Shown piece by piece: positions 1,469-18,190 of a stretch of 64,000 nucleotides of DNA. Under the pieces are notes generated by a model that saw only the letters and a list, made by a program, of their open reading frames with translations, was not told the DNA's origin and ran no database searches. This stretch comes from Podarcis cretensis (taxonomy: Eukaryota), in assembly GCA_951804945.1 (NCBI GenBank), contig OX638149.1, forward strand, positions 75,702,001 to 75,766,000. Direction: 5' to 3'. The translations under genes and the position numbers were made by a program. Numbering within the stretch: position 1 is the stretch's first letter; each line of letters opens with the position of its first letter.

Positions 1469-3389
1469 TATTTTGATACAACCTCCTCCTCCTCCTCCAT
1501 CCCCTTTCCCCCTCTTCCCTTCCCACCCACTATCTCAGCCCTTGCCTTGCCCACCCACTGCCAACAAAATGGGATCCTTCCTCAGAGTGAAGCATTGTGG
1601 GTGAACTTGCCCAGACCATAACTTGGCCTCAACAGCAGCCAAGTACTATTTAAAACTATATAACAACTTTTGAATAGGAGTTTACCGCCACCACAAGCCC
1701 CCATTCTTCCTATGCTTCTATGATGGTTTGGAAAATAAATGCAGAGTGATTTTCAGTGCATATCTGATCACATTCTGGTTATTGTTTCCTTTTTCCTTCA
1801 AAAGATGTAGCCTGCAAGGCAAAAACAGACTTTGTAGTTGGTAAACTCTCGTTGCTCTAGCCCCAATGGCACCTAATAACATTTCTAGCAATTCAATTTG
1901 TGCAAAAAGAATTACAAAATGAGTGAATGAAAACAAAACTCTAGTTGATGACCATATTTGTTATTGAATAAAATAAGAATACTTACAGACTAACAACAGG
2001 TCAACTCAACTGCAACATTCAGTTCAACTGAGCATAAACAGCCCTTCTCAGCTTTCATTTACTACCAAGTTACACAAGTGAAGAAAGAAAGCCTGACTTC
2101 CTGGTTTATACCTAATAGGGACTGTGTAAAAACTATCAACAGGGAGCAGAGCAGTAAAGCTATGAAAGGCTCCAGCAATGATGCAACAGCTACTCTTTTG
2201 CTATTGAAAGAGCCTACAGTATATTCTATGCCAGGGTGATCCAATGTCTGCCACAAGGGCAATAAAACTTTCTGCAAATTAGAGACTGTCCTCTGATCAC
2301 AGAACATTGGCATCCTCCTCTCACCATTGGTGTGCTTGTTCTCTGAGGGTAGCTTGCTGCTCTGCTGTTCCAAGGTTAACAGTGAAAGAGAGGTGGGACA
2401 TTGGTGACTCTGTGACTGCCCAGAAAGCCATTCTGTTGTGCAGTAAACACACAGAACTGTTACTCCATTGCTTCATGGGATCTAAATATCTCTTCCTTCA
2501 CTCTAGCAGATCCACTGAAGGGGAACTGTGCTTTTTCCATATTGGCACAGTTGCTTAAAGTCAGCAATTCTTCCTTTGCAACTGCAGCATGGATTTGACC
2601 GTGTTTCTTTTTTTATTTGGTGCCTTTTTCATATTCAAAAAGTGCCAAATACAAGCCATGTTTGCACACTACCAAGGCAGTACTTCAGTCTCTCTGCTGT
2701 CTCACCTAGATGACTGAGTTGTGTCCAAGACCATAGAGAGTGAAAAATTAATATGATTATTGAAAATTGAAAATTGAGGATTTCCATCCCTCTCCTCCCA
2801 TTCCTCGCAGTCTCCTCCACTTCCCAGGTGGTGAACAGATCCAAGGCAGATTCACAGGATCACCTTTCTTTTGCTATGGTCTGTTTTATTTCTACATCAC
2901 TTTTGGCACAAAGGCCCCCAAAGGAGTGAACGACATTAATGCGAATTACAAAAGAAATAGGCAACAAAAGTATGATACTTATAGCGGGTCAATTGAAACA
3001 ATGTAAAACAGCATCTTTTGGAGGAGAAAGCTCTAGAGATTTGTAATGGGGACATGTTTTGCAATGTCTGTTCACAAATGTTCAAGTTGAAACAGGTAGC
3101 AGGCAAGCTGGCAGGAAGACAAGGAGTTCTGTTCCCAAAGAAAAAGAAAACCCCACTATTTGTTCTTTTCTGCCTGCCAGCTCCCCAAATTAAAAAAATT
3201 TCTGCCTTTCTCTGGTGAAATTCAAACTGCACATGCCGTTCCTTTCAGCTCCACTCTAGGCAATTGGCTACGATACATTTCAGCAACTTAGATATCTACT
3301 GTATACTAGATCCTACGTTTTAGGCTATATACAACCTGAGAGAGCAGAAAGTTTAATAACAAAACAACATACTAGAATATTATAAAATA

Positions 3390-5271
3390 GGGACTTCCGG
3401 GTTAGCGCCAACATCTAATGGCAGATTCCCTCCGATCTCCGGAGGGAATCGGCTCAGTAGGGATCGGGTTCTGCCGCGAAGGCGACGCGGGGACCCTAAA
3501 AAACCACATGTGCGGATGCCTGTGGACGTGGTGACTCGGCGGGCACCATTAGCGCCCCCCCGACCCGCAAAGTAGCCTTTTTAAAGGTTGCGGAACGGAG
3601 GCGGGGAGCGGCGCGGTGCTGAGAGCCCTCTGCTTCCCCTGCTGAGCGAAGCCGCATGCCATGGATGGAGAGCGCTGACTTTTTCCTTCAATATTCGGAC
3701 TAAAAGCAACAACCCGTGAGTAATATGGAAATTGGACTTAAAAGGGAAATTCTTTCTTAAAATTCGGCACGATCGGGGGAAGTGTAAAAAGGAAGTCCGC
3801 CCCCCCCCCGCCTTGTAGATAATCTAGAGCAAGGACCAGCCAACTAAAGTTGGGAGAAAAAGTTGCCTTTTTGGAAGAAAAATTACTATCTTCGCGATTG
3901 GACAGTATATTTGATTTTGCTGGAGGATAAGTATTGGTTTAAATTAAAGTGCAACCCCCCGGGACCTGGGTGCGATCTGTGAAAGAGCCTGCTGGAAAGA
4001 TACGGACTTTGACAGCTGTCAAACTAGCTGTCAAAGTTGGGAAATAAAAGGAAACGTTGCTTTTGGTGATTCTGCTGGCTAGATTTTCTCAGATTTGGAT
4101 TTAATTGTCGGAAGCAAAGGCAAATAAGTTACATTTTGGTCTACTGGATTGAGATTTTAAAGACACTAAGTAAACAGAATCCCCCTAGAGGGGAGTTTTG
4201 GAATACTGCAAGAAATGGCTGTAAGTGGAAAAATACTCGCTGAGCTGAACAGGACTTTTTATCTCCTGGGAAAGTTCCAGGAGCAGAGCAACATCTTAAC
4301 AACAAGGGCAACAGCACTGAATGATACAGTAAACAATCTTGTGGGAACAGGAAGAGACTTGACACAAGTTTTCGTCTCTGAACCAATAGCCCTTGAAGTT
4401 GAAACAGAAACTGCAGCAGCTGGGGAAACGAAGTTTGAAAAATCCCAAGAGACATATGAGGACTTGCTGGAAATTAAAGATGAAGCCACAATGTTGCAGA
4501 AGACACAGCTGGACCAGAGGCCTGGTAGCATAAATTTGATTGAGATGGAAATTGGAGCTTTGGGGACATATAGATTTAAAAGACTTAAGAAACAAAATTT
4601 GAGCTCCATTTTTGAATATAGAGGCCTGCTGGGAAGAAAAATGGACATTATTGGGACAGAGCTTCTTCGAGAGTTGGTGTTGGAAACAAAGGACTGTCAA
4701 AAAGACCGGCAGATAGAAATTGAGAGAGGTTTAAAAGCCTCAGGTGTTTGGGATCCAGGCTGAGAAATGGACGCATTTATGGACACTGGTTTGGGGATCA
4801 AAACCGGGAAAGGGAGGGTGGAAATTGAAAATCCGAAGGGTGATATAATCTGCTTAGATCTTGTTTATATGTTTATTTCTTTATTTATAACTTTTAGGGA
4901 ATGTGGAAAAATCGTGGAAGGGAAATTTGGGCCGACTTGAGGAAAAAGGTTTAAGATTAAGTTAAAATTGGGTTTTTTTAAATTTAAATAGATATAAGGT
5001 TTTAAAAATAAATTGAGGAATGAAAGAAAGAAGAAAAGGAAAATAATAGCATGACATAACAAATTGTTAAGTTTAGGTTGAGAAATAAGATAAGAACTTG
5101 TTGAGTGGATAGTAATGAAATTATAATACAGAAGGGGGAGGTGTGAGGAGGTCGAGGAAATAAGGCTTAAGAGAAAAAAAGGATTGAAATTATACTTGTA
5201 TTTTGTCTGTTTGTGTTTGTGTATTTTTGTGTTTTAATGGAAACTTCAATAAATATCATTTTTTTAAAAAA
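3390..5271 (+). mobile_element. Full-length non-autonomous L1-type retroposon (HAL1-like) with a single non-RT ORF
   Basis: Perfect 16-bp TSD AGAATATTATAAAATA (3374-3389 and 5272-5287). CpG-rich 5' end starting GGGACTTCCGG, ORF at 4215-4763, T-rich 3' UTR, AATAAA at 5248 and a short A tail. Confidence 0.75.
4215..4763 (+). CDS. Retroposon-encoded ORF (182 aa, heptad/coiled-coil-like, possibly derived from L1 ORF1)
   Basis: ATG in a good context (gaaATGg), A-rich coding strand, located inside the TSD-bounded element. No EN or RT motifs seen. Confidence 0.45.
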   Translation: MAVSGKILAELNRTFYLLGKFQEQSNILTTRATALNDTVNNLVGTGRDLTQVFVSEPIALEVETETAAAGETKFEKSQETYEDLLEIKDEATMLQKTQLDQRPGSINLIEMEIGALGTYRFKRLKKQNLSSIFEYRGLLGRKMDIIGTELLRELVLETKDCQKDRQIEIERGLKASGVWDPG

Positions 5272-5400
5272 AGAATATTATAAAATAAAACTTCCTTTCA
5301 AGCGTCTGATCACATTCAGATCACATAAATCAAATATAGATGCACATTTTTCTGACTTTGATTTGGCTGCATAACTTATACATCCAAACTCTCAGTAATT

Positions 5401-16804: not shown

Positions 16805-18190
16805 TTTTTTAAAAATTATATATTCAAAAAACAGACATACAGAGAACGAACAGACATACCCAAAAATAGACATACAAAAAAAGAAAAAGAAACTTACACT
16901 GTACATAAATGAAAACCAATACCGTCTAATATGCCCCCATGTGACTTCCCTTCACCACCACTCGACATTCTGTCTAGTTATTAATCTTATTAACTTTGCC
17001 TCTTTTAAATATTATTCCTTATTTATCTATTTTGTCTGATTATCTACTCTACAAACTTAGTCTATGCATATCAACATATTATCCTTAGAACAGTATTTTT
17101 TCATACAGTCCCAAAGCATTTCCATTCCTTCGTTAATTTCTGATTTGTCTGATGTCTTATGGCTGCTGTTAACTTCGTCAGTTTTATAAGTTCACATAGT
17201 TTACTTATCCATTCATCTTTTGTTGGGATAACAACTCCCTCCCAATTTTTATCAAGTTATAATCTGGCTGTGGCTGTGGCATATAAAAATAGCCTTTTCT
17301 TATCCTGTGGGATGTCTTTTCCCAAAACACCTAATAAATATGCCTCTGGTTTCTTTTCAGTAGAAGTTTTAAACATCTTTTTTAGCTCTTCATGAATACA
17401 CCCCTAGTTTTTTTAATTTTCTCACAGCCCCACCATACATGAATCATTGTCCCCTCCGCATTATTACATTTCCAACATAGATTGGTTTTTAAGTTATATA
17501 TCTTGGCGAGTTTGGAAGGTGTCAAATACCACCTATAGAACATTTTCATTATATTCTCTTTAACAGTGTAACAGGCAGTGAAGCTGATGTCCAACCTCCA
17601 AAGCCTTTCCCACTGTTCCATATATATTGTGTGGCCGATATCTTGTGCCCATTTGACCATAACTTCTTTTAGTTCCTCATCTTTTAGATTGCATTTCAAT
17701 AAAAGGTCATAAGTTTTGAATATTAATATCTTATTATTTTTTAATAATACTTTTCGTAATTTAGATTCTTCTCTCCAAAACCCTATTTTTTTGTCTGAAT
17801 TAAATACATTATTTAATTGATGATATTGAAGCCAGTCGGTGAGGTAATGTCTTATCTCCTCAAATGTTTTGAGCTTCAGTTGTCCCTGATCTTCTTTTAA
17901 TAATTGACTATAATTTGCCCAATTACTTTCTGCATTTAATTTTTTTACTGCAAATGCCTCTAGCGGGGACAGCCACCATGGCGTTTTTGGTTCTAATAAT
18001 TGTTGATATCTGGTCCACACCTTGCATAGAGCATTCCTTACTATATGGTTAGTAAATCCTCTGTGAACTTTCACCTTGTTGTAGCCAAGGTAGGCATGCC
18101 ACCCATACCTGTTATTAACACTCTCCAGATCTAATGTATCTGTGTTCTCTAGAGATATAATTTTTATCAATTATAAGATTACCATCTTTT
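16805..18190 (-). mobile_element. 5'-truncated L1 LINE (ORF2 C-terminus plus 3' UTR)
   Basis: The 262-aa ORF includes KMFYRWYLTPSKL...CWKCNNAEGTMIHVWWGC (L1 CCHC region), followed by a frameshift, the rest of the C-terminus and the 3' UTR. Confidence 0.88.

Follow-up and report, generated by a model that had tools for sequence, protein, structure and literature searches.

At positions 3390-5271 of the Podarcis cretensis DNA analysed here (64,000 nucleotides; the window), a retroposon carries a single open reading frame (ORF) of 182 aa. The locus raises the question of what kind of element this is, where its protein came from and what that protein might do. The original prediction took it for a recently active, self-promoting, L1-dependent element resembling half-L1 (HAL1) elements, possibly of an undescribed squamate family, with a cargo that was possibly a novel protein.

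The element is flanked by target-site duplications (TSDs; AGAATATTATAAAATA) that are 100% identical, and the coordinates of its parts are given in Table 1. The locus was compared with four DNA-like runs. In one of these (X5), a single contig fuses position 3373 to 5272 and skips 1,898 bp, with 16 ambiguous letters and a junction that is exact across the TSD; in another (X1), a contig extends from the flank into the element. The CpG observed/expected ratio was 1.0-1.1 over the first 400 bp of the 825-bp leader and fell to 0.1-0.6 in the remaining leader and the ORF. The element starts with ACTTCCGG, presumably an ETS/GABP-type motif, which also opens autonomous L1s of the same genome. No endonuclease (EN) or reverse transcriptase (RT) was found in any plus-strand frame. 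The perfect 16-bp TSD, the leader of about 800 bp with a CpG-rich first half, the lack of EN and RT, and the G-rich patch, T-rich 3' UTR, AATAAA and A tail had all been predicted and were located as described, the A tail being short at about 6-8 nt.

Table 1. Coordinates of the element and its parts in the window
Feature	Positions	Strand	Basis or remark
Left TSD (16 bp)	3374..3389	+	Repeat identity; empty site in run X5
5' leader of L1 origin (presumed internal promoter); 7 upstream ATGs	3390..4214	+	Colinear with L1 5' UTRs
5'-most ~230 bp, replaced by an L194/L197/L213-type L1 5' end	3390..3620	+	Diagnostic sites
Single ORF, 182 aa, eroded L1 ORF1p	4215..4763	+	Intermediates, HMMs, tree
N-terminal heptad helix, from the initial heptads of the coiled coil in ORF1p	4215..4358	+	Omega 0.48, 2dlnL 31.7 versus omega = 1
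Acidic linker, second half of coiled coil	4359..4529	+	Omega 0.86, not significant
RRM remnant, 20/93 parent positions	4530..4589	+	Alignment; omega 0.79, not significant
CTD remnant	4590..4691	+	Alignment; omega 0.71
Conserved C-terminal stretch, CTD end and ORF1 tail repeat	4692..4760	+	Omega 0.31; ends at founder deletion junction
Putative decayed remnant of last ~43 ORF2 codons	4761..4900	+	Via intermediates; below significance when this copy is taken by itself
3' UTR	4764..5271	+	G-rich patch 5125-5165, T-rich tract 5195-5240, AATAAA 5248, short A tail
Right TSD	5272..5287	+	Repeat identity; empty site in run X5

Copies of the element were abundant in the 1.5-Gb genome searched. A DNA search returned copies that were mostly 83-100% identical (40 of 6,721 candidates scored), and exact TSDs of 13-22 bp were present in 25 of the 30 loci fetched, most of which had the same start. 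Forty diverged copies chosen from a protein search mostly followed the same plan of about 1.8-2.15 kb without an internal ORF2. Overall the family copies span 1.8-2.3 kb; neither they nor the element itself contain an ORF2 with EN and RT. The exact 5' 16-mer of the family occurred 1,846 times (control, 0). Sixty of these matches were taken irrespective of their ORFs: the first 30 on contig 1, and 30 from the 35 that followed, 5 of which were passed over as known from protein searches; two of the matches represent one local duplication. Family members made up 55 of the 60, which puts the number of 5'-intact copies at roughly 1,700 at least; some L1 copies have the same 16-mer. The nearest relatives of the copy in the window diverge from it by about 2%.

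The insertion marks are of the L1 type: TSDs of variable length (13-23 bp; mode 17 bp in 54 family TSDs), an A tail, and a T|AAAA bias with T before the cut and A-rich sequence after it. A cut of this kind is the expectation for the L1 endonuclease. The ORF was open in 36 of the 55 sampled members, one of these being altered in its last codons, and in every sampled subfamily; in-frame lengths took 32 different values from 174 to 261 aa. Open frames were found in 5 of 17 members of basal types and in 31 of 38 of derived types (Fisher p 4e-4). The more frequent breakage of the basal types suggests that the eroded lineages, those without RNA-binding domains, which account for 38 of the 55, are the younger ones. 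The element is thus, with near certainty, a young copy of a large HAL1-type retroposon family that arose from a lizard L1 by internal deletion; its many copies with a shared start and differing TSDs, the empty site and the selection on its ORF described below bear out what had been predicted of the family. Family copies were also seen lying in or beside the full-length L1s L194, L210 and L211, on the opposite strand.

Queried directly, the 182-aa ORF resembled nothing. Pfam returned nothing credible for it and 35 relatives, the protein database and the ESM Atlas were blank, and a profile search yielded 11 proteins, of which the 10 looked up had no names and came from Logan only. A Transposase_22 search of the genome gave no match and its controls were also blank; the same Pfam model failed to match the two L1 ORF1s scanned (L071 and L075), Pfam missing even lizard L1 ORF1s. 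Direct profile comparison with L1 ORF1 gave a probability of 0.1-0.2%. AlphaFold models were of low confidence (pLDDT 41 for the 182-aa ORF and 52 for the 261-aa ORF of a basal copy, L160), neither Foldseek nor PDB sequence searches matched an ORF1p, and searching by fold was not informative. The comparison with L1 ORF1 by profile and structure that had been proposed as a check therefore failed when made directly, and the link runs only through intermediates.

These intermediates surfaced when copies were sampled regardless of the state of their ORF, and they form a size series from the parent L1 through ORFs of 261, 238, 214 and ~205 aa to the 182 aa of this copy. At the base stands L160, a TSD-flanked element of 2,282 bp that consists of an L1 leader, ORF1, the last ~43 ORF2 codons and an L1 3' end, and of whose type at least 150 copies were found. 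Its 261-aa ORF matches residues 77-306 of L1 ORF1 (E 2e-38) followed by the ORF2 tail (72%, E 1e-14), and in DNA L160 is 81% identical to the L1 copy L212 in the leader and 78% in the ORF. UniRef and the ESM Atlas (0.93) both annotate the parental ORF1 as an L1 RRM protein, and the closest homologues of the parent proteins that carry a name are Podarcis records. Stepping-stone HMMs connected L160 with L1 at 159 bits, L150 with the basal copies at 188 bits and this copy with the intermediates at 97 bits (shuffled controls reached at most 5.7 and reversed controls 11.7), while the HMM of the parent L1 scored this copy at 0.6 bits. In a tree of 34 proteins the 25 family rows formed one clade (100/99), sister to L212, with this copy as the most derived tip. 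As judged from these comparisons, the ORF descends from the ORF1p of one L1 subfamily (L212, L211, L208, L210), and the suggestion of a cargo protein that is novel by origin is not supported.

In the founder, some 51 codons were lost from the N-terminal end, and its deletion joins the ORF1 tail repeat to the end of ORF2, which supplies a stop out of frame. The ORF2-tail match stands at z 22-25 in basal copies and 1.3 in this copy. No GT donor was found at the 3' junction of the large deletion; the 5' junction can be read as GT..AG but lacks a pyrimidine tract. The predicted likeness to the L1 3' end at 16.8 kb stood in part: the ORF2 fragment there is real and the architecture similar, but the 3' 300 bp of that L1, compared with the element, scored 56, when shuffled sequence averaged 58 and reached 80, so the likeness is architectural only. 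That locus (16810-18125, minus strand) is a 5'-truncated L1 that covers ORF2 residues 913-1250 and is interrupted by stops and a frameshift. Elsewhere in the genome, two large L1 clades, L071-L091 and L182-L213, include many full-length copies. The L071-type clade was considered as the parent and rejected, as the common part is only the first 445 bp plus a weak 3' match.

The original prediction could recognise neither RRM nor CTD in the protein, and the series supplies the reason: both were eroded. With domain borders set by the author from ORF1p motifs, 77, then about 50 and finally 20 of the parent's 93 RRM positions can be aligned along the series, and 66, 46 and 42 of the 66 CTD positions. 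The first half of the RRM was apparently lost several times, on separate branches (the L158, L153, L165, L171 and L046 lineages). The heptad spacing that had been noted in the ORF proved to be conserved, as hydrophobic positions 7/11/15/18/21/28/35 are nearly fixed across 75 open ORFs; the low-confidence AlphaFold model places N-terminal helices at residues 2-44. The protein as a whole is acidic (pI 5.0), with a net charge of -10 in the middle. Over its last 70 residues most lineages carry a net basic charge, and the second large lineage is near-neutral or acidic there (L171 -2, L097 +2).

Selection on the ORF was assessed with a codon model of the author's making, applied to sequences picked for their open frames and with recombination ignored. 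Among the 75 open ORFs, internal-branch omega was 0.48 for the first 50 codons, 0.38 for the last 33 and 0.43 for both ends together (2dlnL 52.8), and 0.89, not significant, for the middle; shifted frames gave 1.61 and 1.34 and leader pseudo-codons 1.08. The proposed dN/dS test thus came out well below 1 at the ends of the ORF. L1 and the late family lineages were compared in 32 rows including the parent. Omega was 0.23 in L1 and 0.48 in the late family for the first half of the coiled coil, 0.30 and 0.86 for its second half, 0.22 and 0.79 for the RRM, and 0.23 and 0.71 for the CTD, and 0.73 and 0.31 for the CTD end with the tail. Under this model the RRM and CTD drift towards neutrality along the series, and the N-terminal helix and a stretch of 30 residues at the C-terminus remain under purifying selection. 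Selection on the ORF of a mobile element implies an advantage in cis.

Two readings of the element can be set aside on this evidence. Internally deleted L1s do occur in this genome (L148, L164, L213), and the element might be another one-off deletion decaying neutrally; its dispersed copies with differing TSDs, the nearest about 2% apart, and the selection on its ORF rule this out for practical purposes. A captured foreign gene or a de novo gene unrelated to L1 would accord with the blank Pfam, database and Atlas searches and with the negligible direct profile probability. This origin is nevertheless most improbable, and we regard it as refuted by the continuous intermediates, nested deletions and common junction.

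The family has exchanged sequence with other L1 subfamilies. The leader profile is colinear with 19 of 21 L1A loci over positions 1-445 (one partially) and with L1B loci up to 1-850, and diagnostic sites change from the parent type to the X type at L053 and stay so in every later lineage, which shows that the first ~230 bp were replaced by the 5' end of another L1 subfamily. Trees of the 5' UTR misplace the root and do not recover one family clade (p-AU 0.22), which we attribute to this swap. The 3' end probably also came from other subfamilies: the nearest 3' ends are those of L204 for basal copies, L197/L205 for L159, and L198/L206 for L046 and the copy in the window (scores 175/187 for the latter). 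Recruitment of new 5' UTRs is described for L1 in a passage of PMC5381506. Repeated swaps fit a family RNA that would enter the same reverse-transcription complexes as L1 RNA.

The element would work much as HAL1 does (PMC5753468, PMC2241872, PMC4161310). Mammalian HAL1, including rat RNHAL1, is the same kind of non-autonomous L1 derivative with ORF2 deleted (excerpts of PMC5753468, PMC5786205, PMC2241872). These excerpts and the present data agree on the retention of 5' UTR, ORF1 and 3' end, on high copy number and on L1-type TSDs and tail. The structure of L160 makes the lizard family an L1 derivative by ORF2 deletion, the transitive HMMs and the tree make its single ORF an ORF1p homologue, and it propagates as a separate family in which that ORF is under selection. 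The HAL1 passages concern ORF1p-encoding elements of mammals, whereas the lizard family comes from a lizard L1 subfamily. Unlike that of HAL1, the lizard ORF1p has shed ~51 residues at its N-terminus along with 73 of 93 RRM positions and 24 of 66 CTD positions while the family spread, and it does not have the complete set of coiled coil, RRM and CTD. Going by its sequence, the element is a HAL1 by origin, set apart by an ORF1p that is not intact. In the part of the literature searched, including PMC5203782, we found no squamate HAL1 and no eroded HAL1 ORF1; lizard entries may be present in Repbase/Dfam or in Bao & Jurka 2010.

Other known systems share single features. HeT-A and Ag-Sponge likewise encode one ORF1-type protein, proposed to multimerise with that of an autonomous partner, but they belong to the Jockey and CR1 clades and not to L1, and the excerpt of PMC5786205 that treats them does not mention domain erosion. 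In truncated human ORF1p acting in trans, the N-terminus together with the coiled coil forms the active part, as it would here; the copies described in that part of PMC5605252 are dead-end L1s that suppress L1, whereas the lizard family replicates with a selected fragment. SpIREs also combine a 5' UTR/ORF1 deletion with an N-terminally truncated ORF1p, but according to the section of PMC5860796 concerned they keep ORF2, arise by splicing and are mostly dead ends, in contrast to a long-lived family with a large deletion that lacks a GT donor at its 3' junction.

There are two views of why half-L1s keep ORF1, one crediting RNA binding in cis (PMC2241872) and the other multimerisation with the protein of the partner (PMC5786205). 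The deletions found in this family tell these views apart by a series made in nature, as the RNA-binding domains have decayed and the coiled-coil start is still selected. The reading that we favour, with some reservation, is that this half-L1 is copied by borrowed L1 ORF2p, with its eroded ORF1p as a docking adaptor. Transcription would start from the internal promoter and the 182-aa protein would be made and act in cis; its retained N-terminal coiled-coil helix might dock on L1 ORF1p assemblies by co-assembly as its C-terminal stretch holds RNA or a partner, and L1 ORF2p would carry out target-primed reverse transcription in trans, the first and last of these steps following established L1 biology. 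Possible ORF2p donors are L1s of this genome with open ORF2 frames of 1,263-1,286 codons. For the docking step itself, in which the eroded ORF1p would link its own RNA to L1 ORF1p particles, we put the chances at about even.

A predicted complex of two L206 coiled coils with the first 60 residues of the protein scored 0.38 (best control, 0.00). In the calibration, which differs from this job, 5 of 78 solved complexes and all 4 passing mismatches came up to the mark with scores of 0.60 or less. Three runs gave 0.38, 0.20 and 0.42, with at least 90% agreement in contacts and a partner pLDDT of 66-72. The model lends docking slight support, and the score may reflect only the kinship of the coiled coils. 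Four runs presumed to be RNA contained only pieces of diverged relatives. Truncated human ORF1p is reported to affect L1 in trans via its N-terminus and coiled coil, although it suppresses L1 rather than helping it, which speaks against docking (both in the portion of PMC5605252 concerned). The N-terminal heptads of human ORF1p are able to open and might join trimers into meshworks, and they depend on the C-terminal heptads to trimerise (statements in a section of PMC5940361). Against docking, the C-terminal heptads have decayed in this family and the protein is net acidic; a passage of PMC5381506 adds that lizard ORF1p may not be trimeric. Multimerisation with a partner has been proposed for HAL1 as well as HeT-A (excerpt of PMC5786205). 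We also entertain, as a tentative idea that is perhaps wrong, that ORF1p changed here from an RNA chaperone to a two-ended adaptor, the helix plugging into L1 ORF1p and the loose tail becoming a new constrained motif, with every step kept in one genome.

Three other accounts of the ORF were weighed against docking. The protein may be a minimal chaperone that associates with itself and uses the C-terminal stretch to bind its own RNA, with no contact to L1 ORF1p. That stretch is now its most constrained part, the basic last 70 residues of most lineages would suit RNA, and an excerpt of PMC2241872 ascribes the success of HAL1 to ORF1p binding its own mRNA; yet the RRM and the CTD, which bind RNA in cooperation (a section of PMC5940361), are mostly deleted, and the C-terminus of the second large lineage is not basic, so that we consider this account rather unlikely. 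It also seems improbable that translation alone matters, the open frame stabilising the RNA on ribosomes where ORF2p is caught, with the peptide sequence nearly irrelevant. The near-neutral middle, the many in-frame lengths and a strong start context (purine at -3 and G at +4 in 73 of 75 ORFs) accord with it, but an open frame alone would yield omega near 1; the low omega of both ends, with clean controls, and the nearly fixed heptad positions count against it. Equally improbable, in our view, is a competitor whose helix would poison L1 ORF1p assemblies, loosen the cis preference of L1 and free ORF2p for nearby half-L1 RNA. The suppression of L1 in trans by human fragments of N-terminus and coiled coil (PMC5605252, in the part cited above), the weak pass of the predicted complex, and the numerical excess of family-type 5' ends over the 725 found for the L1A start (an L1 count for one clade only) are compatible with this, but a purely trans effect would aid non-coding copies equally and would not keep the frame of every sampled subfamily open. 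The docking account remains the one we prefer. In one subfamily, stops were also seen just upstream of the ATG.

The family also shows that erosion can leave an ORF1p undetectable, so that it stands as an orphan protein on a retroposon; this is relevant to similar elements with an unknown cargo. Several other L1 loci showed unusual structures. In L085 (G000:C8:21963400-21971900), ORF1 runs into ORF2 in one frame of 1,103 codons. In L213 (G000:C12:548100-556600), an internal deletion has fused ORF1 in frame to the last ~190 residues of ORF2, giving a frame of 565 codons, and the Podarcis protein record P0020 has by its appearance a similar ORF1/ORF2 fusion; both are possible founders of new half-L1s. 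L148 and L164, TSD-flanked and 3,654 and 617 bp long, join about 135 bp of an L1 5' end to 3' ORF2. At L203, about 990-1045 on the reversed locus, the start motif forms a short tandem array in the L1 5' end.
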